From Vicugna vicugna (lineage: Eukaryota): a stretch of 44,943 nucleotides of DNA. The notes under the pieces are model-generated. The model was given only the letters and a program-made list of their open reading frames with translations. It made no database searches and was not told where the DNA came from. Location of the stretch: positions 102,646 to 147,588 of the forward strand of contig MU057833.1 of NCBI GenBank assembly GCA_013265495.1, in the 5' to 3' direction. Position 1 is the stretch's first letter, and every line of letters begins with the position of its first letter. A program made the position numbers and the translations under genes. Below are positions 1,963-37,099 of this stretch, piece after piece.

Positions 1963-2299
1963 AGCCTGCATTAAGATATTTCCCTCAAGGAGAAATCATG
2001 GTTCCAACAGACATAAAAAATAACAACAAAAAGAAACAACAAAGACTGTTAACCACGTCGTGATTATATAAACACATATTTATTGGCTTATGTCCTTTTA
2101 TTAGATACGTCAAGTTCCTGGGGAATTAAACTAATATTGGAGGAACTTTTGGGTCAGTGAAATATTTAGGTGTTTATGCTTTCACATTAACTGCTATTAT
2201 CAAAGATACCCATTTATTCAAAAGAAAGGGATTGAAAATAAATCTAAAAAAGGAGGGTAAAAGGCAGTGGCTCCTCCTCCAGCCCCTTCCCCCACACGG

Positions 2300-3050
2300 C
2301 AGGATGACTGCGAGGGACCGCGCCCTCCCCGAAGACGCTGGCTTCTTGGCGCCCCCGGCCGGCCAGAGCATCCTCCGCGGAGGGCACCCCGGTACCGCGG
2401 CGCCCTGGTGATGCCGAGCCCGCCGCAGCCTCCCGGAGGGCCGGCCCCGAGCCGGGGCGCCCGCCGCAGCCACGAGTGCCCGCCCCACAGCGCCGGGCCC
2501 GCCGCCTGCCCAGGGCTCCCCCGCCCCCCGCCCCGCGGCCCGGCCCGAGCGCCTCGGCGGAGGCGGGTCCCCGCTCGCTCGCCGTGGCGCGCGGCCGACC
2601 TGGGCGAAACCGCGTCCCGGATGTTCCAGCTGCATTTGGGCGGGGACGCCGACATGGAGGAGCGGGCGTTCCCCAGCCCTTTCCCGGACTACGAGGCCGC
2701 CGCCGGGCCGCGAGGAGCCGTCAGGTGCTCGGCCCGCGCTCTCCCCCGACGAGCTGGGCCTCCCTTTCCGCAGCGACGGGAAGGTGAGTCGGCGGCTGGC
2801 AGCCGGCGGGCGGGCCGGGGCCGCTCGGGGTGGTGGTAGGGTCCGCTCGTCGCGCGACGTCACCCGCTCGCGCCGTGCACGTCACTCGTCCGCGCCGCGC
2901 GCCGCGCGCAGCTTGCGGCCTGGGTCCCGCGGCGAGGGCTCCGGGGACCGGGCCCCTCTGCGCGCCTTTCGGCAGCGCGGAGCTGCGGCCCTTCCCGGGC
3001 GCCGTGGCCCTTCCAGGGGAGGATCGGTGCTTCCCTTGTCGGGAGGCACC
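2300..3050. promoter_or_regulatory. CpG island / promoter of the LANCL2 copy
   Basis: Very high GC and CpG density with GC-box (ccgccc) motifs, overlapping the LANCL2 exon-1 equivalent. CRE/E-box-like 'gacgtca' at 2856 and 'cacgtcac' at 2878. Confidence 0.85.
2600..2783 (+). pseudogene. LANCL2: LANCL2 exon 1 remnant
   Basis: Reads (L)GETASRMFQLHLGGDADMEERAFPSPFPDYEAAAG, versus LANCL2 MGETMSKRLKLHLGGEAEMEERAFVNPFPDYEAAAG. After a frameshift near 2705-2712 it reads EEPSGARPALSPDELGLPFRSDGK (LANCL2 ...DEPGLPFHQDGK). Donor aag|gtgagt at 2783/2784. Start codon is CTG at 2600. Confidence 0.93.
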
Positions 3051-3273
3051 GCCGTCTCTGTCAGAACAGTGAGCGAGATAACACCTTTAAACTTGTTTTA
3101 ACTCTTCTCTGCGCTGGTTTTTTTTTTTCATTTTTAAGAAATACGTAATTTGTTTGATGTTGCCCTTTCAGAAACACGGTTCATGTAAGCTTTTCATGTA
3201 ATCATAAAATAATATCTTGAAGGGAAAAAGAAAAGGCAATAATGCTTTTTGGGGGGCGGGGGACTCCTTCCAG

Positions 3274-3477
3274 GCATTGCCCTTTTGTGCCTGCAGCTGC
3301 GCCGGGTCACACGTGACCAGACCTGTCTGCCCCCATCCTGGATTAGGTGAAGAGAGCACTTAGGAATCTGAACGGCCGGAGGGTCACCTTCCTCTATGGA
3401 GATGCCGGCCCCTTGCCGTCAGAGCCGTGGTACATCATGAACTCAGCAGTGATTGAGAATCCTAGGAATGCATCACA
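3274..3477 (+). pseudogene. LANCL2: LANCL2 exon 3 remnant
   Basis: Acceptor ttccag|. Reads GIALLCLQLRRVTRDQTC..LD*VKRALRNLNGRRVTFLYGDAGPL..VRAVVHHELSSD*ES*ECIT, with stops at 3344 (TAG), 3454 (TGA) and 3463 (TAG) plus frameshifts. Donor |gtgagt. Confidence 0.92.
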
Positions 3478-4213
3478 GTGAGTTATTAAAGCTGGCAGTA
3501 TTTTCTCCAAGTTCTCGGTCTTGCTGTAGAAAGAGATTCAAAATCAAAATTAGTTTTTAATTCATCTACTCTTTCAAGCAGGTCTTTGCAAGAAGCCAGG
3601 AGTTAGTGTTCTAATCCTGATCACATGCTCCATTTCTGTCCAGGCATGTGTTTGCCTTAATTTGAGGGGGGGGACTAAGCATAGTTTTTCCTAAGTAATT
3701 TTGGTTGCCTTCAGTGCATGAAAATTAGCTTGTACACCTTAGATGCACTGTAATTGTCTAAGAAACAATCAGAGATTCAGTTAATGTTTGTTAAAGGTAA
3801 GATGACTCAAGCTAATTTCCAACCATTGGCTACATTTTAGTAACATTTTCATTAAGGTTTTAAATCACTTCCTTGTATTTCTGGATTTCAGAATTGAGTA
3901 TCTTAATATGGTTTAGAGCATCTTACATGATTCATATGTGTATCTCTTACACATTTTAGATACAAATGTAGAACTTTTGAACAGAAAGGTGTTTTATTAT
4001 TAATTTTGAGACCTGAGAGAGAAATTTGTTTGGTTTTGTAGTAGGGAAGTTTTTCTTTTCCATGGGTGTTTTTTTATTTTTTGAATTTTTAAAAATCAGA
4101 TTTAAATTAAAAGTAAATAATAGATAATTTCTAAAGTGATAGGGTTGCTTGCAGCTTCAGGAAGAGTTATTTTAGACATTCTCTGGGAAAACAGAATTTT
4201 TCTTGTTGGGTCG

Positions 4214-4361
4214 ACTTTTGCAGCGCCAGAGAACCATCGTCTGCCAAGATTCAGACCTTCCCGACGAGCTGCTCCATGGACAGGCAGGCTATCTGTACCC
4301 TTTACTCTACGGGAACTCAGAGATGGGTCCAGGTGCTGGGCATGAGTCAGCTATCAGAGAG
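4214..4361 (+). pseudogene. LANCL2: LANCL2 exon 4 remnant
   Basis: Reads LLQRQRTIVCQDSDLPDELLHGQAGYLYPLLYGNSEMGPGAGHESAIRE (LANCL2 LLQLQRSVVCQESDLPDELLYGRAGYLYALLYLNTEIGPGTVCESAIKE). The frame is open over 148 nt, but the acceptor is CG rather than AG (4212-4213). Donor |gtact. Confidence 0.93.
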
Positions 4362-4516
4362 GTACTGTGTCCTGTCCCAGCCACCTGGCTGCCTGCGTAG
4401 AGTTACAGGAGTGGCTGGACTCCACTTCTAGGTGGGAGTAATTTCCTAAGGCATCTCATAAGGGTAATAAACAGCCCCTTTTTCTTTTTTCCTATGAGGC
4501 TTTTTTTTTTAAATTA

Positions 4517-4931
4517 GGTCTGTATTAATTCAGCTGTTTTTACTAGAACCAAACAATAGCAGCTTCAGAAGGATAGAATGTTTATTTCTCTCTCACGAGG
4601 TCTCTGAACAGCTGGGCAGTCCAGGAGAATATGGCTCTTCTGTCTTCATCCACCTTATTTTAGGGCCGTGCCCTTCTCTGCATGACCAAAGCAAGCTGTG
4701 CACCTGCAGCCCCCAGGGTGATGAGGAAGTGGAGGATGAGCACCTTCCTTTTTAAGGCCAGCTGGAAGTTACCCACCTGCCTTCTGCTCACATCCCACTT
4801 CCACACCTCAGTCAGATGACTGTGTCCAGCTGTCTGTATCTCAGAGGCCAGATGTCTAGCTGAAACTTGGAGCGTTGTTACCAAAAGTGTATGGGGGAGA
4901 GGATATGAGGAAACAATGAGTGTCTGCTACA
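4517..4931. mobile_element. Old MaLR solo LTR (MLT1J/K-like)
   Basis: 'gtttatttctctctcac...ccttctgctcacatcccactt...ggatatgaggaaacaatgagtgtctgctac' follows the MLT1 LTR layout. Confidence 0.6.
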
Positions 4932-5538
4932 TAATCTTTACAGATGTGATTGTCTTCTTTTGATCTGCTCTGAAATTCCCAGGAACTGTGTTAGTTAGAA
5001 ATATGTCCTGATGGTCAGTTGTTGACTACATCAGAAGGTATTTTCATGTAAGTTATGTTCCAGAAACTCATTTGTGAGTTGGATTATTTTGAACTATGTT
5101 TTCTTCTTCCTCAAGATTCTGATACCTTCCCAATTTTAAGCATCATTTGTAAACACACTACCATGTATCCCTTTGTTTTTAAGCTGTGTCTGCTGTTTTA
5201 CTATTTTGAATAAGCTACAGTGAACATTCTGGTACAGGTCTTTTTGTGGACATGTTTTGATTTCTTTGGAGCTAATTCCTAGGAGTGGAATTGCCAAATC
5301 AGAAAGTAGCTTGTTTAGTTTTTTAAGACACTGCCAGGCCTTTTCTCCAAGGGCTGTGCCGTTTTTCATTCCGTTAGTGGTACAGGGGAGGTCCAGCTGC
5401 TCCACGTCTCTGCCAACACTTGGTGTTGGAAGTCTCTGTGGTTTTCCTCTGGTGGGCATTTCATCTTGGTTTTAATTTGTGTCTTCCTGATGATTAAGGA
5501 TGTTGAGCAGTTTTGCTTGTGCTAATGGGTTGAGTGTA

Positions 5539-5754
5539 CAGTTGACCCTTGAAAAACATGGATTTGAACTGTGTGGGGCCACTTTTATGTGGATTTTTTT
5601 CAATCAGTACAGTTACAGTACCACACAGCCCAGGGTGGGTTGAATCTGAGGACACAGAAAGGCATACAGAGAGGGCCGACTGTACGTTATGCAAGTACTT
5701 CCAGCTGGGTAGGGGGTCAGCGCCCCAACCACCACGTTCTTTGTGGGTCAGCTG
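5539..5754. mobile_element. Tigger2-derived MITE (MER8-like)
   Basis: Terminal inverted repeats cagttgaccc... / ...gggtcagctg, flanked by TA on both sides (5537-5538 and 5755-5756). Confidence 0.85.
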
Positions 5755-6131
5755 TAAATCTTTGTTGAGTGTCTGTTCATATCTTTTACCCACATTGTTT
5801 TATGTGTTTATTTTTGTCCCCTTATTACTGAGTTGTAAAAATTCTTCATATGTTTTGGTTACAAGTCCTTTTGGTAGATGTATGTTTTGGAAATAATTTC
5901 TCCCAGTCTGTAGTTGGCCTAATCATAGTCTTTGTGAATATGAATAGAGTTTTTAATTCTGATAAAGCCTATCTTATCAGTGCTTTTTTTTTAAATGTCA
6001 GTTACTTTCTGTATTTTGTCTAAGAAATTTTACTTACCCCCAGGTTATACACTGACAGTATTCTCCAGCATGCTTCATGGATTTAGATTTATATTTAGAA
6101 CTGTGATCTGTCTCAAGTTAAGTTTTATATG

Positions 6132-6243
6132 TTATGGGGGGAGGTAATTAGGTTTATTTATTTACTTATTTATTTTAACGAATTGACCCCAGGACCTCAT
6201 ACATGCTAAGCACACGCTCTACCACTGAGCTGTACCGTTTCCC
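6132..6243 (-). mobile_element. tRNA-derived SINE (camelid type)
   Basis: Reverse complement reads gggaaacggtacagctcagtggtagagcgtgtgcttagcatgtatgaggtcctggggtcaatt...aaataaataaacctaattacctcccc, i.e. tRNA A/B boxes plus an AT-rich tail. Confidence 0.85.
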
Positions 6244-8859
6244 AGGTTTTGTCTGTTACGTAAAGGAGTGAGGTTTTTCTTTTAATAACCACAGGGGTAT
6301 CTGAATGTTCCCACATCACTTGTTGAGAAGATGGTTTTTTCCCCCGTTTGATTGATTTCGTGCCTAAAAAGGCACGAGGTCAAAGTCAAGTGAGCTGGTA
6401 AGCGTGGATTTCCTGCTGGGCTCTCTGTTCTGTGACTCTGGCCTGTTCACCTGTCACTGCGATGCCACGCTGATGGGATTCCTCTAGCTTTATTGTAAGT
6501 TTTGAAGTCAGGTAATTTAAGACTTCAACTTTATTGGGGTTTTTTTCAGAATTGTTTTAAATATTCTATTTTGGAATCCTTTGCATTCCTATATAAATTT
6601 TAGAAATTAGTTTGTCAGTGTCTGTAAAAGAGATCTATTGGGATTATGACTGAAATTGCATTCAATCTGTAGATCAATTTTGGTAGAATTGATGTCAATA
6701 TTGAGTGTTCTCATCCACAAATATGGTATCTCTCTCCATTTATTTACATTTTCTTTCACTTATGTCAGTAGTAGTTTATAGATTTTGATGTTTTTATGTT
6801 TAACGTGTGTCTCTTCATAATTGGGACTTGTCTAGCAGGGCAGTCTAACAATCTCGGCCTTTCATTTGGAATGTGTAGTTCATATCTAGTTAACTATATG
6901 GTTGGATTTAGCTCAGCCATTTTCCATGTGGTTTCTATTGGCTACATCTTGGGACTTTTTTTTGTCTTTGGTTTTTTCCTTCTTGCCTTTTTAAAGGAGG
7001 TAGGAGAGATTAATTGGATATTTTCTAGAATTGTGTTTTAATTTCTCTGTTGACTCTTTAACTGTATCTATTTGTACATATTTTTAGTAGTTGCTAAATA
7101 TGCATCATTAACGTTGCAACACACAGCTTGCAATATTCATTCTTAACTTTCCCAGTCCGCTCAGAGCTAACATTGTAACTTCTCGTGAACTGTAAGAAAG
7201 GACCAGGTGCCTGTTGTCTGACTGCAGTTCTGTACATTTTACTGCATCAGACGTGTCAGCAAATGCTGTAAACCCCCAATACCATGTTATAAGTTTTGTT
7301 TTTTAAATAGTCCTATGTATTTTAAAGAAATTAAGACCAAAAAAGGTGGTCTGTGATATCTGTTTGTACATTTCCCCTTTTCAGTGCTGTTCATTCCTTC
7401 CAGAAGGCCCAGCCTCTCTGGTGTCCTCTCCTTCGGCTGAAGAACCTCCTTTAGCATTTCTGATTGTCTAGGTTTGGTGACAACACATTTGTTTTTCACT
7501 TACCTTACGTTTGTCTTTACTTCCCCTTCATTCTTTAAAGATACTTTGCTGGGAGTAGAATTCTACGGGGACAGTTCTTTTTTCCTTTCAGAACTTCAGA
7601 GATACAGCTCCGCTGTCTGTGGCCTCCGCTGCTGAGAAATCTGTCGTCCTTTATGCACAGTGTGCTTTTCCTCTGGAAGCATTCAAGATGTCCTCTTACT
7701 TCTTGGTTTTCAACATTTTACCATGTACCTCTGTGTGTCTGTGTGTCTGTGTGTATTTATCCTGCTTTGAGGTTCCTTAAGCTTCTTAAACTTGTAACTG
7801 TACGTCTTTCAGTACATTTGGTAAATGTTAGGCCTTTACTTTCCATCAGATCTCTGAAGCTTTTATTTTTAGGGTTTTTTCCCTTTCTGTAATTCAGATT
7901 GCTCAATTTGTTTATCCAGCTTTATATTCAGTAATGGTTTCTTCTCCTGTGTCCAGTCTGCTATTAAGCCTACCCAGTAGGTTTTTTAATTTCACCTATT
8001 GGTATTTTTTCAGTTCCTGGATATCTGTTTCTCTTTGTAGTGACATTTCTTCTCAGATTTCCAACCATTCACTGGTGATAAGTGTAGTTTCCTTTTCATC
8101 CTGAAGGATTTTGGATAACTGCCCCAAATCCTTGTTTCTATTTTCAACACTTGGTCATCTCTGCATCCATCCATTTTGTAACATGAGCAAACAGGCTCAG
8201 AGAAGTTAGTGATGACCCCCCCCAAATTACACAGTATTTGTGGAAGAAGGAATCCAACCAACGTCTCCCTGCTCCAGATCCCCTATGCTTGTTTTCCTCT
8301 GCATGTACTGTCTCTTCAGACTTTCTGTCGTGGCATTTCCCAGGGAAATTTACCATTTGAGAAAAGTAAGACGGATCAGTAAACAGATTTTCTGGCCAAG
8401 TTATAATGGCTACAATGTAGAGAAGATAAATCTGTGATTAAATCTGGGAGTTCTCTTCTATAATCATTAAATGTTAAACTGTCCCACTGTTAAAAGTAGC
8501 CCCACGCTTACAGCACGAGTGGGCCGTCCCCCCAGCAGTCTGTCAGGGGAGCGGGGGTGCCGGGAAGGAAATCTGACCCATTTCCCTTTCCGCCCTCACC
8601 CGCTCCTGGCCACCCCCAGGAAGGAGCGAGTCAGCTCTTCTGTGGGACTGACCTTGCTCTTGTGTGGTTTTAGGACAGAGCTTCTAACACAGTCTCCCTT
8701 CACCTATTAGCTTTGATCGAGTATTTGTTTAAGATGGGGAGGTTTCTCTTTATAATTCATTTTAAGAGGCTTCAGACACAAATGACAGGAAGGAGTGTTT
8801 GTGCTGGGCTGGGAACGTGGGAGAGCAGTAGTTACCGGCAGCTCAGGAGTAGTCAGCAC

Positions 8860-9050
8860 TGTGTGTGCCACGCAGCGCGCTAAGGGCTGCTTGTCTGTTA
8901 CTTCATCCTAATCCAGCAAGCCGCTGAGGGGAAGAAATGGTAGCGAAAACGGAGACATAAGAGGTGAGGTGACTTGTCCAGGGGCACCGTTAACGGTGAC
9001 AGAGCTGATTCAGACTCCAGCAGTCGGACCCCAGAGCCCACGTCTCACCT
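8860..9050. mobile_element. MIR SINE
   Basis: MIR core-like 'gaaaacggagacataagaggtgaggtgacttgtccaggggcac...gagctgattcagactccagcagtcggaccccagagccca'. Confidence 0.65.
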
Positions 9051-9955
9051 GCTCTCATGAGTCAGGGTTGCTTCTGACCCCGGCGAGACTCTGCCCCAGG
9101 GGCGGTGACTGACGTGGGGGCGTGCCCGTTTCCCGGGCCCTGCCCCGGGGGATGCTGGCTGCGGTTCAGGCCCTCTGGTTTCCTGCAGCCTCCGACCTCC
9201 TCAGCCACGTGCCCAGGAGGTCACTACTCGGCAGTCACGCGGAGGGTCCCGTTTTCTACCCCAAGGAGCTGTCCCCAGTGACCTTTTTGCCTGTGGTCTG
9301 TGGTCCAACACTCACTCGCACTAGAATGGAACGAGTTAAGCAGGTGGAGATTGCCAGTAAGGGATTCGGAGGAGAGGACCAGGGAGAGAAAATGAATGAA
9401 GTGTGAAGGGAATCTGGGGAGGTGAAACTGGCGCCCCATCTTGCTGGCGTTGTCTGTCTGTCTGTCCACGTAACCCCTCCCCGGAGACAGTGCCGCTGCC
9501 CCCGGGCTGGAAGCGCTGTGCAGGTTTATGTCCTCTCATGGGGCACTCTTGATGTGTGGCTGACCTGGGATATAGAATGTTCTAGACGTAGCTGCCAGGA
9601 TGGTGTGAAACCATCGACAGCCCACTACACAAGCAGGAGTTTCAGAGCTGCAGCCTGCCTCCCAGGAAGCACCGAATGGTCTGTGACAAAACATCTCATA
9701 AAAGAGATCTGGTAGCTTCTCTTGATTTTTGAACTCAGTTTGAGAACTGCTTTTGAAAAAGCGCACACGGGCAGAGGACGAGGGCCGTGGAGATTGCAGG
9801 CCGGTGGTGTGGTGCTCAGGTCGGGGCTGGTCTTACCCCCGGGGCCATTTCAGGTTTCCTAACGCCGGGCAGCTTTCTAAACAGAAAGAGAAAGTATTTT
9901 GCTAGGTCATTATTAAAGACATCTTTTTAACACTGACCTGTTTTTCACTGCCTAG

Positions 9956-10112
9956 GCATTTAAGAAGTACCTGAAAGACGCTGTGGAGCGCGGCGGGTGT
10001 AACCTGGCAGCGAGGCTTGCTGCAGGATCTGCCCCAGACTGCTAGGAACGGCTGCCCTTCCTGTCCCTGTACTGCCCCCAATAGGACAGAGTATCTCTTC
10101 TGCGCCTGCAAG
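9956..10112 (+). pseudogene. LANCL2: LANCL2 exon 7 remnant
   Basis: Acceptor cctag|. Reads AFK-KYLKDAVE..VTWQRGLL..IC..TARNG..FLSLY...YLFCACK (LANCL2 VFKEEKYLKEAMECSDVIWQRGLLRKGYGICHGTAGNGYSFLSLYRLTQDKKYLYRACK) with several indels. Donor aag|gtaagg. Confidence 0.92.
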
Positions 10113-10329
10113 GTAAGGGCATCCATCCACACACCTCCTGGACCCTCCAGAGTGGGCACAGAGCCCCAAACAGCTCCCTCCTCCAGCTGGGTTCTCCTGG
10201 CTCTGGGGTTCCTCCCGGCCCAGCCTTGCCCCTGGCCGCTCTGTGCTGGGGGCCCCTCCTTTAACGTGGGTCCAGGGAGAGGAAGTGTGTTCTGCAGTCT
10301 CATGACCGGTTAGAATGGCCTCCTGCGCA

Positions 10330-10440
10330 GTTATTAGTTTTATGACTTCAGGGCACTCCTTCTTCAAGCTTCAGTTTCCCCGTCTGTAAAAATACTACCC
10401 CTCTCAGTTTGTTCCAGGAAGAATTAATTGAAATAGATCA
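10330..10440. mobile_element. MIR SINE fragment
   Basis: MIR core-like 'gcttcagtttccccgtctgtaaaaat'. Confidence 0.55.
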
Positions 10441-12689
10441 TTTGTAGTGGCCCCTGCTTAGCTCCCTCCAGTGGTTTCCCACGGCCCCGTGAAGAGAACC
10501 CACACCCCCAGGGTGGAGAGCCCCTTGTGCCTTGGCCCTCCGCTGCCTCTCCACCGCCTCCCCCACTCTCCGCAGAGTGGGGTGTGCCTCGGGCCCCCCC
10601 CCACTGCCTGGCGGCTCCTTGCCATTCCCGCCCCCAAGTACATGCTTTCGTGGAGCCTGTAAGGTCTGCCGTGGCGGAGCCGCCCGGTCCCTCCCTGTGC
10701 TGCTGCTCCTCCCTGAGTGCTCACCCCGGACCGTCAGCTGCACGGCCATTTGTCCGGGTCACAGCCCTACCGTGGTACCTGGAGCAGAGCCCGGCACTGT
10801 GTAGAGACTTAATAAATATGCATCCAAGGTGTGAAGATGCAGGACTCAGTAAATGTTGGCCAGTGTTTTTGTAACTCTACACACTTTACAAAACAGTTAT
10901 AGAGATACAGAAAAAAATACAGAAGAAAATACACCAGAACGTCTGCAGTGACCCTTGGCAGACGGAAGTATTCAGGGTGGCTTCTTATTTATATTCTTTT
11001 TATCGTGAAACCTTCCCTCAGATCAGGAGGAATAGAGCCCCCCGTCCTGGTGCCCGGGACACACATGCTGCTCAGTGCCCACGCTCACAGCCAGGCCCGG
11101 CAGGCTGCTCCAGGGGCACACGGGGAGGGCAGGCGCTGAAGCCGGGCGTTGGGAGGTGACATCGGGGCCGAGACCTAGGAGACAGCTGGAAATCGAGCGA
11201 GGAGGAGTGGGAGCAGTGCCTCCAGCAGAGGGCCCTGGAGGGCGAGCGCCCAGGTCCTGGGGCCAGGGAGGGGAGGCCAGCCCTGGCTGGCGGTGATCCC
11301 AGTAGCAGGCGGGTGAGTAAAGATGGAGACGGGCAAAGGGAGGTGAGACGGCTGGCTTTCTAAAGATGACGAGCCAGGCAGGTGTGGCGTGGCGAGGGGG
11401 GCCGCCGGGTCGGAGAGGCGCCCTGCAGAGGCAGGGAGGCAGGCCCAGCACGGTGCGGCCTGCAAGCCCGAGCCCGCACACTCGGCGTGGGGGATGCGAG
11501 GGGTGAGCGGGGAGTCGGGGGGACAGAGGCCAAAGGAAGCGCGTCCTTCCCTTTAGTCAGCAGGTCTCAGCCTCGGTCACACCTGAGACTCACGGGGGAG
11601 CTTCGAGAGAATGCCTGGGGCCCACCCTAGACTTGGTCTTGAGGGAGGCCAGGCCTGCGGTGCCCGTGACCAGCCATGCGGGTCCTCATCCGGAAGGGGG
11701 GCTTCACAAAGGTGTGAGCTTCGTGTTCAGACTCCTCTCTCGGGCTGGCCCTGCTCACAGTGGGACGGATGAGGTAGAGGTTGGGTTTTTCCAAACTGCT
11801 ACTTAATAACTAATGCAAGAAATGTTGCGTTATAAACCAAGGCATGGGCCGTGATACGAAAGAGGAGAGATTTAGAAACACTTAGGATGTTCAGTCCACA
11901 GAACTTAGTAGGTTTTTTAATGTAGAGAAGAGGGGAATGTATGAGTGTCTCCCTGATGTCTGACCAGGGAGACCAGATAGATGGTGCATCAAACAAGCTG
12001 GAAGAGTGAGCAGGTTTAGAGGCGGAAAGCAGTCAGTCTTCGTTCATATGTGCTGAATTTGGTATCCCTTGTGTTTATTACCTATGGTTCTTTGTGCACA
12101 TGTGACAAAAAGTAAGTTAGCTTAACCAGAAAGAGGGAAACGCATTATAATGTAAAAATCCACTGAAGAGGTTTAAGAGGGAAGGGCCTGGGAGCTCAAG
12201 GGAAATGGCTGACAAAGCTGAGGAGCGAGTTTTCAAGATGAACCATGCGGTCGGTCAGCAGCGGGCGGGCCAGGGAGCCGCGGGGAGGGGGCGAGGGCTG
12301 CGGGCTCCGGCACTGGGGCCGGGACAGTGGCCAGGGCCAGCCGAGCCAGGAGCACATCCCGGGGGCGGCTTCAGAGCCAGTGTCTTAATCTGGGGCAGGA
12401 GGCACTGCCTAGAAAAGACAGGGTGGTCGTTGAGGTGTGAGATGTCTTCCTCAGTCCTCGCGACCACCTTTTGAGGTGAATTCCACCTGACAGATGAGGA
12501 GACAGGCCCAGGCAGGTCTCACCAGCTCAGAAGAGGGGGCGCCGCGTTCGCCCAAGCCCACGCTCCCGACCGCTCTGTTGCCGGGAGTCTGGTTTCCTTG
12601 ATTCTTGGTGAATTCACTGTGGTCTCTTGCTTGTTGTACTTCCACCAAGTGCAGTCTCCACTCTTAAAGAGAAGCCTCTTTCTTCCTAG

Positions 12690-12750
12690 TCTGCAGAGTG
12701 TACGGAGCACGGGTGCCGCATTCCCGCCAGGCCCTATTCCCTCTTTGAAG
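12690..12750 (+). pseudogene. LANCL2: LANCL2 exon 8 remnant
   Basis: Acceptor ttcctag|. Reads SAE..YGA..GCRIPARPYSLFEG (LANCL2 FAEWCLDYGAHGCRIPDRPYSLFEG) with two internal deletions. Donor gaag|gtgaga. Confidence 0.9.
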
Positions 12751-13329
12751 GTGAGAGTGAGGGAACAGCCCTAGGTCTGAGTATCTGGGTGCGGGAGTCT
12801 GTCCCCGTCTGTCTGCACTGGCCCTGCCAGTTGGTCTTCCTGACTCCACAGCTGTTAAATGACTGACTGAGCAAAGCAGTTCATCGCTGAAAATCACATC
12901 TGTCTCCCTGGACTGCTTTGTGCCCCTGTGAATTTCTCCCAGGTATTTTTAGATCTTTTGTGAAGTATTTATGCAGGCACAACACAGACTGTTTGCTGCT
13001 CAGTAAGGGAAGAAATAGTAAGTTCACTCCTCTGCGTTCCATCTGTGATGCTGTGTGTCTAGCACTGGTCTAGCAAACTTGGTATTTCAGTATGATTATT
13101 TAAGTCAGATAAAGAAGTGTGAATAACTGATAGTAGTAATTTAAAAGTTGTAATAAGTAAAAATATTAGTAATTGGAAAAAGTAGTAAGAGAATATTGAA
13201 GAAAGTTCTGAAAAACGAGCAATGACGGAAAACCAGCAAACACATTGAGTCTGCTGCAGGCGGGGTGCATAGGATGTAATTCAGAAGAACAAAGCGGATT
13301 CCCACAGAGACTCAGACACCCTCTGTTTA

Positions 13330-13376
13330 GTGTGTGTGTGTGTGTGTCTGTGAGAGAGAGAGAGAGAGACAGAGAG
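13330..13376. repeat. Compound (GT)n(GA)n microsatellite
   Basis: gtgtgtgtgtgtgtgtgtctgtgagagagagagagagagacagagag. Confidence 0.9.
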
Positions 13377-13509
13377 AATTGGATATTTTATAGCATAAGC
13401 CACAGAAACCAAAGGGCAAAGGTTAATAAATGTTAGAATAAATTGAAGATAACTTTTTGATTACTTTAGAGCCACATTTCAGAAGGAATAAATGATTGAA
13501 CACTTCTTA

Positions 13510-14175
13510 AAAAATCAAAGGGTGCTGAATTTTGTCAGGTGCTTCTCATGCATCAGTTGATAAGATCTCATGGTTTTTCTACTTCAGCTTCCTGGTGTTG
13601 TGGGTCACACTGGTTGACTTTCGAATATTAAGCCACCCTTGCGTCTCTGGAATAAACCTTCCTCGGCCACGGTGTGCAGTTCTGATCCTGCAAAACTGCA
13701 TTTGCTAGCACTTTCTTGGGGATTTTTGCATCTATATTCACGAGGAATACAGTTTTCCTTTCTCATACTGTGTGGTTTTGCCATCAGGGTAATACTCGCT
13801 AACACTGTATTGAGAAGTATCTTCTTCTCTGTTTTCTGGAATAGGTAGTGTATTCATTGGTGGAAAAATTGGTGTTAATTCTAATTCTAACTTAAATGTT
13901 TGGTAGAATTCTTCAGTGAAACCTTCCTGGCTTAGCAATTTCTTTTTCAGGAGTTTTGAATTTATAAATTCCATTTGTTTAGTAGTTTATAAGGCTGTTC
14001 AAGTTACCTTTTTCCTACTCAAGTGAGTTTTAGTCGTTCGTATTTTTGAGAAACTGCTCCATCTCACCCGTGGGATCAGATGTGTGCGCATAAAGCTTTG
14101 GGGGTGGCCCTGTATTATCTTTTAACATCTGAATTGTCTGTAGTGATGTGCCCTGTTTCATTGCTGCTATTGTCA
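13510..14175 (-). mobile_element. LINE-1 ORF2 fragment, antisense
   Basis: Minus-strand ORF 13738..13974 contains 'GFTEEFYQTFK.EL.PI', a known L1 ORF2 motif. The flanking sequence is typical antisense L1. Confidence 0.85.
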
Positions 14176-15621
14176 TTGTAGTCATGTAATAGAAAAATGA
14201 GCAGTGGAGCATTTGTCATGATCTTTTGTAGAATAAGATCTTAATACTCAAAGAAATCATAATGGAAAAATGTTTTTCCGAATAAACCTTTTTAGTCTTT
14301 TGTGTCAGTGTATTTGTATGAAGTAGAACTGGGTGAAAACCTGAACCCTAAATGGAGTTCATTCAGGTTTATAAATTCAAGTTTCTGATGGCAACTTTAA
14401 AGCCCCAGTGGGTGAACATCTCGGAGGGTCCGCTCCCTAAAGGCTGGGAGCTGTCAGCTCCGCCGCTCCACCGCGCCTCACACGTGCCCGGCAGTGGACA
14501 CTAGGCTCTTGTCAGATGGGTGAGCACATGTGCTGAGGCCACTGGGCCGGCAGGGCCACCAGCACCTGTGACCCTCTCTGGAGGAGTCCCTCCTGCCCAG
14601 GTGTCCCTCGGGGAGGCCTGCTGCTCCACCCCGAAAACAAGAACACGGGTCCTTTCAGCGTGGCCGGCTCTGCGTGGCCGGCTCTGCTGGCCCTCCTGGC
14701 CATTGTCAGGGTCACTGTCCACTTCCAGCCACTTCTAATAGATCACTGGTTTTCAGGTATCTTTAGCCGCTGGAACGTTTTTCCCAACAACAACTTACAG
14801 GGAAAGCTAGAAACAACCCAGATGTGGGAGGACAGCTGCGCTGACACACACAAAACGAGCGCGAATGTCAGAAACACTGAGGGAAGCAGCCAGACACAGC
14901 AGGCTTATCGTGCTGTTGGTTTCACTCATGTGACGCCCACAACAGGCGACACTAATCCGAGGACCAGACTGGAGAGGAACTTCCTAGGGGAGGTGATGGA
15001 AATGCTCTGCATCTCGATCAGGGTTTGGTTTACACAGGGGTATGCATTTGTCAAAACTCACGGAAGTACACTGAACACTTGTGTGTTTTGCTCTGTGTAG
15101 ACTTCACGTCACAAGGAAAACGGCAAGCCAGCCGCAGGGGACAGGGCCTTCAGACTGACGACAGAGGCTGGGCGCCCGCAGCCGCCGGGCCACCCTGCGC
15201 GCGCCCCACGCAGCAGCTGCAGCCAGTGCTGGGCCACTGCCGTGTCTGCTGCGGGGATTCTGACACGTCCATTTTAAAGGAACATTTTTAAAGCCTCCTT
15301 AGGTATAAAATGCAACTTTGTTTGGAATAAAAACATCAAGGCTCTTGAGAGGTTTATTATATTGAAATACCACAATAGCAGTGCTTTGATGTTTTTGTTA
15401 GCAATTCTGTGCAGCCATCTTAAAGCATCAAGATACAAGGCTGAAGTTCAGAAACCAATTTTTTTAAACAGGTAGTGAAGACAACTGGTGTCGTTACCTG
15501 CTGGGTGCGGATACAGGGATTTCCTTTTTTTGTTTGTGAAGTTATTTTTAAAGTTCTCACCACTTTTTCCCCACATCCTTACAGCTTTGGTAAAGGCAGT
15601 GATTAAAGGTCACTTGGTTTT

Positions 15622-15714
15622 GGGGGGAGAGGGTATAGCTCAGTGGTAGAGCATATGCTTAGCTTAGGCCAGTCCCCAGTACCTCTGTTAAAAGAAAGAA
15701 AATCCACCCCCCAG
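15622..15714 (+). mobile_element. tRNA-derived SINE (camelid type) with 15-bp target-site duplication
   Basis: ggggggagagggtatagctcagtggtagagcatatgcttagc...; TSD aaggtcacttggttt at 15606-15620 and 15715-15729. Confidence 0.9.
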
Positions 15715-15780
15715 AAGGTCACTTGGTTTGGACACCAGTCTCACACCCTTTTTCATAAGGGACTGCGTTTTACGTTGCAG

Positions 15781-18140
15781 GCATGGCTGGCGCCATTCAC
15801 TGTCTGTCCGACATCCTGATCCCAGAGACATTATGGTTTCCGGCATTTGAACTTGGATCTTCACAGAGGGATGCAAAGGTGCAAAGACTACAGAGAGACC
15901 CAGCTGGACCAGAAGCCGCTAGGCTGCTTAACGCCTGACATAGAGCCAACTGTGAATCCTGAAAGACGGAGGAACAGGAGATGCAGACACCTTCACGGGC
16001 CCCTGTCAGTGTGAGTCAGAGCCGTCCCGTCAGCGTTCCGTGCCAGCGCTCCCCTCATTGGTGTAACACACGGAGTCTCCGTGCCCAGCTCTCTGTAGTG
16101 TCCACGTCTCTTGGTGTTTCCTGTCTGTAGGGGCAGGTGGTTCTAAGTGGAAGTCCTCTGTCCATGAGCCCGAGCTGGCTGTGCATGAGGGAACGTGGCA
16201 GTCGCTTCTCTATATAATATTTACAGTGTGTTTATTGACAAACGGAATTGGCAGGTGGTGTCTCTTATGTATTAGAAAGGTTCTCTCCATGGTGATGGCC
16301 CACTGGTAAGAGGTTTCAGCATTCCTGTGGGTACCTTTCAGATGAGCAGGAGAGAAAGGCCACTCCAGAAATGAACAGAAGTGGAACGGGTGGGGAGTTC
16401 TGCTGGAGTGGAGGGTGGGGAGCCCCCAGGCAGAAGTTTTGTGCTCGCCTTAGTGGTTTTTAAGAAGCCAGAGCGGGTACACTGCAGCTCTGCTGAGGCC
16501 CCCATTCTCAGGCTGTGTGTGGAGTTCCGGTCTCTCCTTGCGGTCATCCAAGGCAGCTAGCTTGTGCCCTGCGGAGTGGGCTCATGACACCAGGGACGTT
16601 CAAGGCAAGCCTTTCCACGGCCACACTGCAAACCCAGCAGCAGTGACTGGAGGTTGGCAAGTGTAGACTCAGTGTATGTTATGAAAACAGACTCCACCTC
16701 AGTTTTATCAACTTCATAGCTTAGTGTTCAGTTCAGTGGACACAATTCTAGGTGGGTAATCAGCTGTTCCCATGTCCCTCCAATTAAACTTACTTCAAAA
16801 TTTGGTGAGTTATCAAAGTATAAATTTGGGATGAATATAGTCCTCAGTTTTTGTCTACTATTTGGGTGATGAAAATAAAATCGCACATTGATGAAATGTA
16901 TTAAGCATAAAGTGCTAGCCTCCATTTATGCATGTGGGCAACAAGGTTCTAACCAAGAAAATTATGATGCTGTCTGTCTGACGTTTTTATTTTAAAAGTG
17001 GGCATTAGTTTGCACTTTACCCTGTAGATCTGTTTTTAGAACAGTTTTGTTGTCAGGATATGAGTGGTCCAGGGTCTTCCAGACTTCTCACCCCACAAGC
17101 TAAGGCACGATCCTAAGCACAAGCGAGGGCTCTCTGGCGGTCTGGTTCTTGTGCACAAGGGCGGTCTCAGGGCTTGGCAGCCCTAGTGCCCACCCTGTTC
17201 GGTGACCTCCAGCTTCTAGATGATGGCCCGTGAGTCTCTTTGTTGCAGACACTCGAGTCACCACTGTTCAAGTTAGATTGGTGACTTCCGTGGGCATGAT
17301 CCCTCTTGGTGGTGCTGTAACCAGCTTCCTGTGCCTGCTCCTGTGCTGCTCAGCAGCCCGATTCCCCGGGACCTGGAGGCAGGACACGAGCGAGCTGAGG
17401 GCACTCTCGGCAGAGAGCTCTCCTGCTGCCACCTCGCAGCCACCGCGCAGCTGACCAGCACGGCCGCCCCCTCGTCCACACCCTGCACAACAGCCCCCGG
17501 GGCCTTGGCGACAGGTTTTGCAGCTTCGCCATTTCTCAGGGGAGGCCGGTGGGGCTGCCCAGGGACCACCCCCGCCCGGCAAGAGGGAGGCAGGTCGTGG
17601 AAGCCCTGGCTCTGCTGTGTCTCCTGACCAGCAGCAGCGAGGGTGACCCTGTCACTTGGGCACCTCACTGTGCATGGAAAGTACTTGTTGGGCTGGCTGC
17701 TGACTGACACGCTGAGGGAAAGGCACAGCACTTGCAGGGTGAGGGGAGGTTCTGTTCACAGGTACAGCTGGGTTGACACCTTCCCACTTACCCACTAGAC
17801 ACTGAGACATGTGCAGCCTCTGACTCCCCAGTGACCCACGTCCTGGCCGCTGACACAGGCAGCCCGCTGACAGCGGTTCCAGCTCTCAGGCCCCGAAGGC
17901 AGCTGAACAGGATGCACAGAACCTGCTTGAATAGTTCTGACAGGTGTTTGAATTCGGATCTCAGAACATCTCACGATGATTTCTTAGATTAGTTTGTGTC
18001 CTCGAAAATGTGTCTGAGCTTTTCAGAGTGTGTGTGCACAATTCCATTTTAAAACGTGAAAGAAGAAAAGTCAATGTCCACAAAAAGCACATGGGTTCTC
18101 TGGTTTGGTGCTCAATAAAGATGGTCTTGTGGTGACACTC
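15781..18140 (+). pseudogene. LANCL2: LANCL2 last exon remnant (coding end plus 3' UTR)
   Basis: Acceptor ttgcag|. Reads GMAGAIHCLSDILIPETLWFPAFELGSSQRD (LANCL2 GMAGAIHFLSDVLGPETSRFPAFELDSSKRD). The 3' extent is inferred from the poly(A) signal at 18114. Confidence 0.85.
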
Positions 18141-23199: not shown

Positions 23200-25184
23200 T
23201 TGTTTTTTAAGTATTAACGCACACTTCTTTTTTATTATAATAAAATCAGGCAATGGTCTGATGATAAAAAAGGCTGCTTAAGGAACACTGTTGAGTTAAA
23301 AAAAGGTGGGAACAAAAAATAAAAAAAAAAAAAAAAAACCTTAGAACATGATGAATTGCTTTTATTTCTGTATGCATCCACATCTCAGCATTAGGTGGTC
23401 CAGAACAGAAAAGTGGAAAAACGCAGCAATCTGCCAGGATGTCGAGCCCGCCAATGCTGGGGATCTGCCGTGCAGTCCGAGTTCGTCCTTAATCCCTGCT
23501 CAGGACCGTGAGAAGCAGCAGCACCAGAACCAAGGTATGCACTGAATTCGACTCTTTCTGTTCCAGTTGTCAGATTCCAAACTAGACCCAAATGGACTGC
23601 AAGGATGACCAAGTAAGGGCCCTGGTTTAAACTACCTCAATTTTTAAATGCAAAAGCAATTACAGGGAAAGAAGCCAATTCACTCAGAGGACTGTGTGTG
23701 CTCACAGGTGCCTACTGTGGCCTTTCTCCACGTTTAACCACCGAGGACTCAGAGTTCGCAGGTCTGAGCAGCCCTGGTGACTGCTCTTGTCACCTTATCA
23801 AAACCTGAGCTGAAAAAAGCATCTGCTGATGATGACAGCAGAGGGGGGCAGGCCGAGGACCCAACATGTGGTTCCCAGGCCGGTGGAGAGTAAATAAATG
23901 TGGTTCCACAACTAAATGAGGGAGGTCAGAGACTATTTCCAACCTTACCTGATGGCTTCCGGCCAAAGCAACGAAGTGTCATGGAAAGAAAGTCAGTGTT
24001 GGGTGGTGATGGGGCAAAAGGGATTTGAAGAGGAAGGAAAAGCGGTACCCCTCGATTAAGGTGGGGGGAGAAGATACGGGGAAAGCCCTGAATTTCTCAC
24101 CAAAGGCCAATTTCAGAGGGGAGCAGAGGGGGCTACTATCTATGCTTCGGCCAAGGGTGGTAGTGGAGAGTGGGAAAGGATGACGGCTCAGAAGGGGGGC
24201 ATCATTTAAGACTTAGAGAAACTAGGGGTGCAGAGCGCCCACACACACCCAGCAGTAGTCCCACAGGCTATGACCCGAAACCTTCACATCTACCCTAAGC
24301 AGCCACCCCAAGCTGGAGGGCTGCTGCAGGGAGGGAAGGAAGCAGGGGGAGGGGGAAAAGGCAGAGACCCCAGGCCATGTCGTCAGCAGCAAGGTGACTG
24401 TGTGATGTGTCCTTTCACAGCTGAGTTACATGTGCCCACCAGTTATGATGGGAATCAACTTAAATACACTTTCTTGATCCCAGAAGCTCAACCATGTGGG
24501 CAGTGGTTACACTGAACAGGAGGATCTGTTACAGGACAACTTATGTATTTCAAATGGACAAAAAACTAGTATCATTTACAGGATCGCAAGATAAAGTCCT
24601 CTGAGTGGGAGTTTCCTTTCCAGCACTTCGAGGTCTACAAGACGTGTCTAGAAAATGTACTGCTGTGGGAAATGAAGACTGCTTAAGTCGAGTGGGGAGC
24701 AAGGGAGGGCCTGTGGCTCTCCTTTGTGACGAATTGCTGTGACACTGTCCTTCGGGTGGCCGAGGGGGTTTCACGTCTCCCTTAGACGTCGCTAGGCGCC
24801 GAAGCTTCTGCAGGACAACTCTGATGCTTCGTGAATTCTGCCATTTTGCTAGCACTGACACGGCTCTTGGGTCACCAGCCCTTTAGAACTAGTAACTCCA
24901 TTCATGGTCATTTTTGTTACAAATCTTACAAAGAGGGGTGCTTCTGGGTATTTGGGTCCACATTCTGTTTTAAGGATGTATATTTGGTTTTCATAAATCA
25001 TTGTCGGAGGCCCAATTATCACTCCTGTCCATCTTATAAGTGCCGTGTCTTCGTCATCTTCTAGACCCCAGCTGACCCCTACTCCTTTCTGGCCTTCTTC
25101 GAGTTCTTCCAACAGTCGGAAATGGCAAGGGACTTTTACTCCCAAGCCCGTGGTGGCTGCCATCTTGAGTCACTGTCACTCCAC
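23200..25184 (-). pseudogene. UBE2V1: Processed (retro) pseudogene of ubiquitin-conjugating enzyme E2 variant 1, including long 3' UTR
   Basis: Intronless CDS remnant at 25163..24730: [29 protein letters not shown][---][10 protein letters not shown]...[14 protein letters not shown]..., a frameshift near 24875, then [22 protein letters not shown]...PPEGQCHSN. Minus-strand AATAAA near 23235, a short A-tail at about 23200-23208, and a candidate TSD aacagccttt (23190-23199) / aacagccctt (25185-25194). Confidence 0.95.
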
Positions 25185-26376: not shown

Positions 26377-27066
26377 AGAGCCCAACGATATGCTCGGGAT
26401 CTAAGCATTAAATCGTGCACGTGAGCTCTATGATTCTTGTTTTACACCTGTCAACAGGCATGATTCTCAGTGCTTTGGCCTACGAAAGATACACTTGAAA
26501 GAAAAACAGAATGTACGTGTTACAGCTCTGCCCCCTAATTAATTAGGCAATGACAACTGATTGCTATCTGGAGACTAGTAGACACTGTGTAACTTCTGAT
26601 GGAAAGACACACTACCACCTCTGCAGTCGACCTACAAACTAAAACTAACAAAACAAAGCAAAACCTGAATCTGACCAAGCTCCTCTACACATCAGTTTAC
26701 ACAGAATACAAACATCATGGAGAGCCCAAAGATATGCTTGGGATCTAAGCATTAAATCGTGCACGTGAGCTCTATGATTCTTGCTTTACACCTGTTTCAA
26801 CAGGCATGATTCTCAGTGCTTTGGCCTACGAAAGATACACTTGAAAGAAAAACAGAATGTACGTGTTACAGCTCTGCCCCCTAATTAATTAGGCAATGAC
26901 AACTGATTGCTATCTGGAGACTAGTAGACACTGTGTAACTTCTGATGGAAAGACACACTACCACCTCTGCAGTCGACCTACAAACTAAAACTAACAAAAC
27001 AAAGCAAAACCTGAATCTGACCAAGCTCCTCTACACATCAGTTTACACAGAATACAAACATCATGG
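26377..27066. repeat. Near-perfect direct tandem duplication (344 bp + 346 bp)
   Basis: Copy 1 is 26377-26720 and copy 2 is 26721-27066. Both start agagccca and end aatacaaacatcatgg. By eye they differ by 3 substitutions and one 2-nt indel. Confidence 0.97.
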
Positions 27067-27924
27067 AGATATTTGAATCACTGTGGTGACAGAGATGCCA
27101 CCAGCAAATCCCAGACTGTAAGCACATCTGCAAGGAAAGCAACTTGGCTTCTTCTACAGGGAAACGGCAACAACGGATAAAAACTGATGGAGGGGAAACT
27201 ATGGATCCAAAAAGATAGAGAAACCAGTATTACGATGTCACCTTATTTGGATGCAAACAGATGATTTTTAAAAAACTGCAAGACAATCAACAGAAATGTA
27301 AACACTGATTAGACTTTTAAAGATACTGAAGATTATTGTTGATTTTAATTGTGTGATAACACTACCTGCTGCATTGCTTGTGGATGAGATGTTTGGGATT
27401 TGCTTCAGAATAATTCAGGGAATGGCCAGAAGGAATAGAGATTGAGCAAGTAAAACTGGCCTAAACTCAGAATTGTTGACGCTTAGTGACGGGTGCCTAA
27501 GAGTTCATTATCTTAATCTCTGTTTGTTAGTGTTTTTTGAAATTTCCTCTAGTTGAGGCTGGAAACATGGGTCTACAGTGGTCCGGAAAGAACCCTGGGA
27601 GAGCAGTGCTTTGACCTGCAGCAGCGGTTGGGCAGGAAGAGCTGAAAGGAGAGCCCGTGTCGTGGGAGGGCCAGGGAGACAAGGCGTGTGCTCTGGGGAA
27701 GGCGGGGTGCACGCCCTGCAACAGGGAAGCACGGTCCTCCCACCAACCTGAAGGCCACACTGTTTCCCAAACCAGCTTTTCAGTTTGATAACCTTTAACT
27801 GCTCATGACAAGTCTCCAAACCATCATCATAGCTCTAGATCAGAGCCAACAAACTGTAAAACAAAGAAGTGAATGTATTTATTCATCCAAGGGTTCGGCC
27901 TTCCCCCAAGGTCCTTGCAGTGTT

Positions 27925-33279: not shown

Positions 33280-34045
33280 AATGCTCTGGGGGGTGTGGAG
33301 AAAAGGGAACCCTCCTACACTGCTGGTGGGAATGCAGTTTGGCGCAGCCATTGTGGAAAACAGTATGGAGATTCTTTCAAAGACTAAAAATAGACTTACC
33401 ATATAACCCAGCAATCCCACTTCTGAGCATATATCCAGAAGGAACCCTACTTCAAAAAGACACCTGCACCCCAATGTTCATAGCAGCACTATTTACGATA
33501 GCCAAGACATGGAGACAGCCTAAATGTCCATCAACAGGTGACTGGATAAAGAAGATGTGGTGTATTCATACAATGGAATACTATTCAGCCATAAAAACCG
33601 ACAACATAACGCCATTTGCAGCAATATGGATGTCCCTGGAGAATGTCTTTTTAAGTGAAGCAAGCCAGAAAGAGAAAGAAAAATATCATATGATACTGCT
33701 AATATATGGAATTTAAAAAAAATGAAAGAAGACAAGTGAACTTAAATATAAAACAGACACAGAATCATAGACATAGAAAACAAACTTGCGGTTGCCAGGG
33801 GGTGGGAAGGGAAAGACTGGGAGTTCGAGATTTGTAGATGCTCACAGGTATATATAGAGCAGATAAACAAGTTTATACTGTATAGCACAGGGGAAATATA
33901 TACAAGATCTTGTAATAGTTCATGGTGAAAAAGAATATGAAAATGAATGTATGTACGTTTATGCATGACTGAAAAATTGTGTTGTACACCAGAAATTGAC
34001 ACATTATAAACTGACTTTGCCTCAATACAAAATAATAATAAATTA
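33280..34045 (+). mobile_element. Relatively young LINE-1 3' end (ORF2 C-terminus plus 3' UTR)
   Basis: ORF 33339..33716 reads [28 protein letters not shown]...CTPMFIAALFTIAKTW.QPKCP...WIKKMW..HTMEYYSAIK, the L1 ORF2 C-terminus. It is followed by an L1 3' UTR and an A-rich tail. Confidence 0.95.
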
Positions 34046-34740: not shown

Positions 34741-37099
34741 TCTCCTTGTGTCTCAGAGACTAGGGAACAGGGAAGGGTCCCCTGCTCCAGGCTGCAGACT
34801 CAGCCAAAGGGACTACAATACCATACGAAACAAGCCCCAGGTTGGGGAAATGAGAACTCAGAGCCACTGTATTTGAATATAAAGTAAAATCAACTTAAAA
34901 AGACACTTTTTTATAACAGGCTATCATTATGTTTATAAACAGAGTATTTTGCTGTGTGACAAAGCATTCATTTTCTTCCATCAACATTTTCTTCTTCACT
35001 TGTTTCTGTAACTGAATGTTGTGTTGGAACTTCACTGTGTTAGAGTAAAGCAGAAACTTTACAGACTTTGACCACCTTGACAGCTAAACACAGAAGACAG
35101 ACAGATCCTGAAATGTACATGTTACTACCCACATTACAGGATTCCCTGGGAAGTGGGGGGAGGAGCATGAGGCTCAGACCTAAAGTACAAGCCGGTTCTT
35201 TACTGCTCCACAAACGGGCCGTGGAACAGACAACTGCCGTCTTCCTACCTCAAGCCCAATTCCAGCACGGGAGTAAGGAGCCCTGCACCCTGAACGCCGA
35301 GGGCAGGATTAGAGAACACTCTCCCTGAGCGCCTGTCACTCTCAGGAAAGGTTCTTCTTTGTTGCACAACATGAAGTAAGAAAGAAGGTAGAGAGAGGCC
35401 CAAAATCTCTCTCCAGTCCCACTTTCTATCATGAGGGTTGGAACAGAAACCCGAGGACAGGGGTGACATACATCCACCCCAATACATGCCAGGCTTTTAG
35501 TCTTTTGGTATTTATTACGGTGTGTTTCACTGGCATCACGCTAGTCGATTTTTGGTTGCTTGGTGACAGGCTTTTAAAAACATTTTTGTAGTGGTGTTTT
35601 AGTCTGTATTCAGAAAAAAATATATATCACATTTTAGCAAATCATGAGGTAAAGATTTTTGAAGTATACACAAAAAAACATACCAGTGTTAGTATGGGTG
35701 ATACGCACATGATGAAGAACCATACAAAGGGAGGCTGGGAAAAGATGTCACAGGCACTGTGAGCAATAGCCAGAAGCCAGCCAGGCTGGGCGGCCTGCGC
35801 AGCGCTGCGCCCTCGCCGCCCCACACTCTGCATCTTCCTACACGGAGCTTCCCCCTGGGATGGCGGGTGGGTGTTTCACTTCTCGCTCACAAGACTAGCA
35901 GCGTGAGTCAGGCAGCATTCCATGCAGCACCTAAGGTCAAAGTTCACTCCCTATTCTATTTCCTATCACGTCCAGTCATGTTATCCAAAGCAGTTCACCA
36001 GACTTTATGAAATGAATCCAAAAACAGGATCAACAACATCAAAATGTCTCAAATATGAGCAACAGGAAAGTCTTATTATTCAACTTCCTCACAGCTAAAT
36101 CCCCTTGCAATTAAAAGCCCACAGAAATTAAAATCAAAATGCCTCATTCCCGATTTCATACAACTGTCTCAGTCTCAGCCAGAGGGCATTACTCAGATGC
36201 CGGGGGCTCTTACCCCTGCAGCTGTGTCCTAGGCTGTCTCTCCCACGAATGGATGCATTTTCTGCATTTTCTCCAGCCTCTTCCAAGTTAATTCAAACCT
36301 CTACTCAGCTCTACTCTCCAAGAGGTCAGTAGCCACAAAAGAAGTGCAGCTCCACTACAGAAGTTACCACAAGCGAAATCATAGTCCCCAAACTAGGTGC
36401 ATGGTGCAAAGCTGTTCAGCACTGCTACTGCCAGCCAGAGTGTGCGGCAGATAACCTAACGGCACCTGTGCTGAGACAGCGAGGACCTGAGAAGGGTCAG
36501 GTCTCAATCCCACGGCAGGCCAGACGCTGCGCCAGGGCCAAGGCCACAGCCTGGAATGCTGTTCACTGAGCAGAAACTGCCCAACAGCTGTGCTTCTGCA
36601 TGTTTATTATGTGTGTGTTTCTTTGTATTTTTCCGTGTTTTGTTCTGTTGGCTGAGGCTTGTGGGGCTCTCCCCATATATTTTGCCTACTTTCTCTCAGA
36701 GGGTGACACTTTAGATCTTATGGCCATCTGAGAAAAGTTAGATACTCCGGTTTGTTCATTTCCTCTTGTCTGTTGTCTCATGCACAATTGTGGTCGAGAG
36801 AAAAACTCTACTCCCAAATTCCTCCAGGTTCTCTTGTGAAGTATCCTCTTCTCTAAGAAAATACGAGGAATGGAGTAAGGACTACCCTTAGCACTATGTT
36901 TTAACTTAATGATTTACAAAGTTTTATTTATTCTGATAGTAGTAATTGTCATCACTCTTCCATAAGCCCTTCCTCCGAACTTAGGCAGACTGAGTTGTAG
37001 TTAGGCAGTAGGTAACCAGAGCCAAAATTTAAAACAAACAAACAAAAAAAATTAAAGCACCAGGATCACAGTAAGGGCCAGTGAGTCAGGATAAGCCTG

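Follow-up and report, generated by a model that had tools for sequence, protein, structure and literature searches.

A broken, intron-bearing LANCL2 copy in Vicugna vicugna, very probably a pseudogene derived from a camelid-stem duplication

LanC-like proteins have been reported to add glutathione to dehydroamino acids (PMC9934072). For the family member LanCL1 it was described that Cys276, Cys322 and His323 bind zinc, that His219 serves as the acid and that His277 contacts the product (PMC9934072). For LANCL2, myristoylation of the N-terminal glycine as well as a role in abscisic-acid signalling have been reported (PMC4879523). Here, a copy of LANCL2 is analyzed, which lies on a 44,943-nt stretch of contig MU057833.1 from Vicugna vicugna; this whole stretch is called the window in the following. 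An earlier annotation made from the letters of the window (the original prediction) had attributed glutathione conjugation to dehydroamino acids and a link to abscisic acid to LANCL2, and both are found in the sources cited above.

A second point of comparison is given by the pseudogene-rich duplicated blocks described for alpaca chromosomes 11, 17 and 36, which harbor NEK10-like, ATF5, FMN2-like and ABHD17A-like copies (PMC13751797). The copy in the window is very probably an unprocessed, that is intron-bearing, LANCL2 pseudogene, which goes back to a duplication in the camelid stem lineage, with a working gene retained elsewhere.

The exons were called by frameshift-aware alignment to the LANCL2 proteins of the Bactrian camel (P0127) and the alpaca (P0160), and their boundaries were taken from a splice-site census. 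This revealed six exon remnants (1, 3, 4, 7, 8 and 9), which are collinear on the plus strand of the window:

2600-2783, plus strand: LANCL2 exon 1 remnant in the 62-codon camelid form; CTG replaces ATG, GT donor kept
2784-3273, plus strand: interval of 490 bp without trace of exon 2, the deletion junction lying somewhere within it
3274-3477, plus strand: LANCL2 exon 3 remnant with three in-frame stops and two 1-nt deletions
4214-4361, plus strand: LANCL2 exon 4 remnant, frame open, 36 of 49 residues identical
4362-9955, plus strand: interval without trace of exons 5 and 6, no match beyond shuffled controls
9956-10112, plus strand: LANCL2 exon 7 remnant, 157 nt versus 177, many insertions and deletions
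12690-12750, plus strand: LANCL2 exon 8 remnant, 61 nt versus 73 inferred, with insertions and deletions
15781-15891, plus strand: LANCL2 exon 9 coding remnant, 31 of 36 residues identical, 2-nt deletion near 15882
15892-18140, plus strand: putative remnant of the LANCL2 3' untranslated region, its 3' end set solely by the AATAAA at 18114

Exons 1, 3, 4, 8 and 9 scored 33-75 bits by tblastn against a shuffled-query maximum of 20-25. For exon 7 the best tblastn match (21.9 bits) lay elsewhere, and the frameshift-aware aligner gave a score of 55 against a shuffled maximum of 11. On the contrary, exons 2, 5 and 6 were at or below the shuffled controls in both tests. In the frameshift-aware test exon 2 scored -9 (shuffled maximum 13, 30 shuffles), exon 5 scored 2 (maximum 20) and exon 6 scored 7 (maximum 21; 5 shuffles for each of the latter two). 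Therefore, these three exons are taken as deleted, which amounts to 149 of about 451 codons or one third of the coding sequence.

The remaining exons are damaged as well. Exon 1 is 184 nt long instead of 186 due to a 2-nt deletion near 2711, and its codons are identical at 50 of 61 positions. Exon 3 displays stops in the LANCL2 frame at 3344 (TAG), 3454 (TGA) and 3463 (TAG), 1-nt deletions at about 3330 and 3413, and the loss of the final two bases before the donor. The acceptor of exon 4 reads CG instead of AG at 4212-4213. With this, the six collinear remnants of the original prediction are borne out by alignment and shuffled controls, and so are the change of the start ATG to CTG, the exon 1 frameshift, the three exon 3 stops, the CG acceptor and the insertions and deletions in exons 7 and 8.

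The introns of the copy span 0.5-5.6 kb with GT donors and the exon order of the parent is preserved; a processed pseudogene is ruled out by these introns. Exon 4 matches human LANCL2 (6wq1 residues 178-226) with an E-value of 4.8e-18 and LANCL1 with about 1e-3. Judged by this match and by the tree described below, the copy belongs with LANCL2 rather than with LANCL1. A protein search with exon 4, which was a weak search, gave four matches among six candidates (two pig LANCL2 proteins and two unnamed fragments), and the remnant itself was found on no record.

The coding capacity is lost throughout. By their equal spacing (57 and 46 residues), the LanCL1 residues named above were assigned to three LANCL2 motifs, AAHG, WCHG and ICHG. 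The AAHG and WCHG motifs, which comprise the catalytic histidine and one zinc-binding Cys-His pair, fall in the deleted exons 5 and 6. The ICHG zinc motif lies in the exon 7 remnant, where the codon of the His323 equivalent reads CCC and thus encodes proline. In the spliced remnant the first stop is reached in exon 3, 86 codons from the CTG or 68 codons from an ATG at 2654, and an open frame of about 450 codons starting with Met-Gly is absent from the remnant. As read from its sequence, the copy gives rise to no LANCL2 protein. If its own splice sites were used, the reading would pass through 68-86 out-of-frame codons to a stop in exon 3, and the transcript would then probably be degraded.

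Such lesions might be errors of one assembly or of sequencing. A search of reads with 2500-5000 retrieved 20 runs from 8 studies under 4 organism labels, each with 59-87% of the sampled words. Contigs from three DNA runs (X1, X5 and X6, one from each of three organism labels) were compared over 2200-5000; this check covers the exon 1-3 region, and its tables of differences and pieces are drawn on in part. All three runs match this region at about 99.4%, that is with about 0.6% difference. X1 has zero differences over 2200-2706, including the CTG, and five differences without a gap over 2767-3666. X5 shows nine differences and no gaps over 2521-4141, and here the interval between exons 1 and 3 has the same length as in the window. 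X6 shows seven differences and 16 gap letters over 2549-3666. Since the contigs agree, the CTG (X1), the frameshifts of exons 1 and 3 and the short interval between these exons (X5) are genuine.

On the side of an artefact, the matching contigs of the three DNA runs all deviate from the window at five letters in 3343-3421, four of which fall within 18 bp; these letters may reflect a private haplotype, another near-identical copy or a local assembly error. The codon at 3344 is nevertheless a stop in every case, TAG in the window and TAA in each of the runs. Contigs from three DNA runs thus exclude assembly error for the exon 1-3 region, and for the copy as a whole an artefact is so improbable that it can practically be neglected. 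Raw reads lacking the lesions had been named by the original prediction as the sign of an assembly error; the contigs carry the lesions of exons 1-3 as given above.

Furthermore, the same three runs contain three more types of LANCL2-region sequence, each with its own joint around exon 3 (3141-3407, 3330-3477 and 3330-3479). Among those listed, the measurable pieces of these types are 10-16% diverged from the window, in comparison to 0.6% for the window locus, and no piece is assigned with certainty to the 3330-3477 type. One type (681 nt) runs from 2926 directly into exon 3, with 150 letters versus 148 in the window and 151-152 in the intact form; this type probably represents a further broken copy, likewise without exon 2. 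Another type, which starts near 3050 in each of the runs, may correspond to the intact gene. The contig depths (17-31 for the window type and 7-48 for the others) were not taken as copy numbers. These types suggest that the pseudogene was probably copied again later, which resulted in a small family of broken copies.

The original prediction had offered two alternatives, an old segmental duplicate or a unitary loss with metabolic implications. In the latter case, the sole LANCL2 of the source species would have been disabled in place, which would remove a reported abscisic-acid receptor and glutathione-conjugating enzyme. The major exon remnants, which are collinear with their introns, promoter island and poly(A) signal, would fit to such a loss. 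In addition, no llama, guanaco or vicuna LANCL2 is present among the cluster members listed (e.g., 15 of 408). Open LANCL2 proteins are, however, on record for four camelid species, which were reached by a pig LANCL2 search and cluster look-ups: C. dromedarius (XP_064338389.1), C. bactrianus (XP_074214650.1), C. ferus (EPY75178.1) and Vicugna pacos (XP_072811661.1 and XP_031526941.1). The alpaca protein aligns without gaps to residues 88-450 of human 6wq1. In addition, a protein decay of 20% together with three lost exons is too much for the time since the source and its close relative, the alpaca, split, and the same broken locus is found under three organism labels at about 99.4%, beside more diverged LANCL2-region contigs. 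A unitary loss is therefore highly unlikely; of the two alternatives, the segmental duplicate is favored by the diverged copies and the camelid records, and the loss is not supported, given the open LANCL2 records of alpaca and three camels.

In Table 4 of the alpaca genome paper, LANCL2 stands between SEC61G and VOPP1 on a chromosome 36 scaffold, EGFR not being part of this table (PMC6598621). Following this table, the working LANCL2 would be located elsewhere, presumably on alpaca chromosome 36 between these two genes. Downstream of the copy no VOPP1 was found by a six-frame scan with five short motifs, which is a weak search over only 26.8 kb; the human gap between LANCL2 and VOPP1 is about 37 kb and thereby longer than this downstream part of the window.

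As a separate observation, two older dromedary LANCL2 records (P0128 and P0131) have an exon 1 region out of frame relative to the Bactrian P0127. These are probably errors in the GC-rich sequence of an older assembly, which could pass for damage to the real gene.

The age of the duplicate was approached by a tree of 13 rows and 154 columns over exons 3, 4 and 9, from which pig and Bactrian camel were left out as isoforms without the usual exon 9. Here, the remnant falls with the three camelid rows and apart from the nine other mammals at a support of 87/96, and its branch has a length of 0.27 versus about 0.01. Over the same exons the remnant equals the alpaca at 118 of 148 residues, whereas the alpaca equals the dromedary at 149 of 154 and the horse at 140 of 154. 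The remnant cannot be a recently decayed orthologue of the alpaca gene. The remnant carries camelid-only states, namely a serine in exon 4 (column 35), an alanine in exon 9 (column 31) and the 62-codon exon 1, which has 63 codons in the other artiodactyls checked. At five sites it keeps the outgroup state where camel and alpaca agree on another one (exon 4 columns 7, 12 and 37; exon 7, HGT versus HGA; exon 9 column 33). The shared camelid-only states together with the retained outgroup states therefore point to a duplication that took place on the camelid stem and preceded the split of Camelini and Lamini at about 16.3 million years ago (Ma) (PMC12337305).

Information on the source itself is given by a pair of exons further downstream:

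41928-42146 and ~43205-43378, plus strand: first two coding exons of a camelid "Rho GTPase-activating protein 20-like" (ARHGAP20-like) gene, both open

Over 43202-43375, the second of these shows 100% identity with an alpaca protein and 96% with those of camels, and the source is therefore a close relative of alpaca. Together with the tree grouping and the camelid-only states, this substantiates the camelid lineage that the original prediction had considered probable.

From these data the following course of events may be proposed. A genomic segment with the whole LANCL2 including its promoter would have been duplicated on the camelid stem, after the camelids split from the other even-toed ungulates and before the camel-llama split (about 16 Ma). 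The copy would then have lost exons 2, 5 and 6, the start codon and the reading frame, and would have drifted neutrally since. Later, the broken copy may have been duplicated again, giving rise to a small family in duplication-rich DNA.

Several points weigh against this interpretation. The intact parent is known from records of related camelids, and the EGFR-LANCL2-VOPP1 block was not seen in the source assembly itself; moreover, none of the three DNA runs can be shown to be alpaca. The alpaca records lack a normal exon 1 (P0160 begins in exon 2 and P0162 has an unrelated N-terminus), and an intact exon 1 is seen in the Bactrian camel only. Over the two exons together, none of the alpaca ARHGAP20-like proteins is the exact equal of the window, so that they assign it to no chromosome. 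The dating is affected as well. An arginine in exon 3 is common to the remnant and alpaca only, and either gene conversion or a change in parallel could account for it. At exon 4 columns 7 and 12 the "camelid" residue occurs in human as well, and these two columns are therefore homoplastic. Finally, the tree support of 87/96 falls under the starred level of the tool.

A further possibility is that the copy, dead as a protein gene, has been retained for its transcription or for a regulatory function. The feature in question is the following:

2051-3400, unstranded: CpG island spanning the former LANCL2 promoter, exon 1 and the beginning of intron 1, found by a 500-bp sliding scan

This is the sole island-like stretch of the window in that scan. 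Its core (2250-3060) has a GC fraction of 0.78 and an observed/expected CpG ratio of 0.98, and this ratio is 1.02 in exon 1 versus 0.45-0.52 in exons 3, 4 and 7. In line with such a role, by which the island would drive a non-coding RNA or act on a neighboring gene, 5 of 5 donors, 4 of 5 acceptors and one AATAAA are retained. However, no selection on a product is needed to preserve the CpGs of an island that escapes methylation in the germ line, and the loss of one splice site out of ten is, by a rough estimate, about what the divergence predicts. Being within expectation, splice-site retention was rejected as a sign of function. The intact island thus allows continued promoter activity but does not show it, and a retained transcribed or regulatory role appears unlikely. 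In about 1% of the RNA-labelled run X22, which comes from a targeted single-cell library, seven reads were found, all partial, five of them under 90% alike and none with joints.

A more far-reaching variant can be envisaged. Here, the duplicate would have founded a small family of broken camelid copies, whose promoter island has been active for >16 million years. It would drive a non-coding RNA or, dispersed within those duplication blocks with which the ARHGAP20-like genes were spread as well, serve as a regulatory element. This variant is speculative and rather improbable.

The surroundings of the copy are consistent with duplicated DNA. The ARHGAP20-like exons match six of nine proteins of the alpaca family; the records concerned have five different lengths (18-39 Mb), and none of them is the 8.98-Mb record with the intact alpaca LANCL2. 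The alpaca cluster as a whole comprises nine proteins on records of seven different lengths. ARHGAP20-like is a multi-chromosome gene family that is possibly still coding.

Upstream of the copy, a repeat array is present:

1177-1959, unstranded: degenerate tandem repeat of the upstream flank, about four units of 231-246 bp, 62-79% alike

This repeat of about 240 bp follows L1-like sequence and is satellite-like, with no named family matched. At 23280-25170 on the minus strand lies a processed pseudogene whose parent is a ubiquitin-conjugating enzyme variant (UQ_con, E 8e-9), which we take to be UBE2V1; the pseudogene displays a frameshift, a long 3' untranslated region and an A-rich run near 23320-23337. 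A recent tandem duplication of 346 bp at 26377-27069 is 98% identical and is either true or an assembly artefact. Two AT-rich stretches on the minus strand (35500-36600 and 34860-35100) resemble by eye the 3' untranslated region of some gene, with an AATAAA on this strand near 35511-35516. At 33280-34030 on the plus strand a young-looking 3' end with a 153-codon open stretch is presumably of L1 origin, and the copies at 15620-15695 (plus) and 6205-6243 (minus) are, as we assume, of the tRNA-derived short interspersed element type.

Although no publication on a camelid LANCL2 pseudogene or LANCL2 loss was found, the supplementary tables of gene-loss screens were outside the search and may list it, and the locus may already carry a pseudogene label in the NCBI gene annotation. 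In the sections of PMC13751797 and the xlsx supplement that were searched, neither LANCL2 nor ARHGAP20-like is named, and LANCL was likewise found neither in this supplement nor in bioRxiv 10.1101/2025.08.28.672513, of which the main text was searched. The copy itself was thus not found described before, and its kind, an unprocessed duplicated pseudogene, is ordinary.

The outcome is in the first place a negative one. LANCL2 is not lost in camelids, and therefore no link leads from this locus to camelid glucose or redox physiology. The presence of several copies at roughly 85-90% identity can, on the other hand, confuse the annotation of camelid LANCL2, primer design, read mapping and gene-loss screens. 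The locus furthermore represents one roughly datable example of duplicated, pseudogene-rich camelid DNA.

In comparison to functional mammalian LANCL2 (PF05147; PDB 6wq1; XP_072811661.1, XP_074214650.1 and XP_064338389.1), the copy shares the exon order and the splice positions, about 80% of the residues of exons 3, 4 and 9, and the camelid-specific residues. Functional LANCL2 starts with Met-Gly, the glycine of which is reported as myristoylated (PMC4879523), whereas the copy has no start ATG. It further differs by its frameshifts and stops, by the deletion of the motifs equivalent to His219 and Cys276/His277 and by the change of the His323 equivalent.

With the blocks of alpaca chromosomes 11, 17 and 36, in which the window has not been placed, the locus has in common that multi-copy, fragmented genes lie in repeat-rich DNA of South American camelids. 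In contrast, these blocks are described as absent or reduced in camels (PMC13751797), whereas the founding LANCL2 duplication looks older than the camel-llama split. The closest likeness is to the unprocessed pseudogenes of segmental duplications. Like the copy, these keep introns and promoter, carry many lesions, have an intact parent elsewhere and are flanked by repeats and by fragments of other duplicated genes, and no essential difference to them is apparent.

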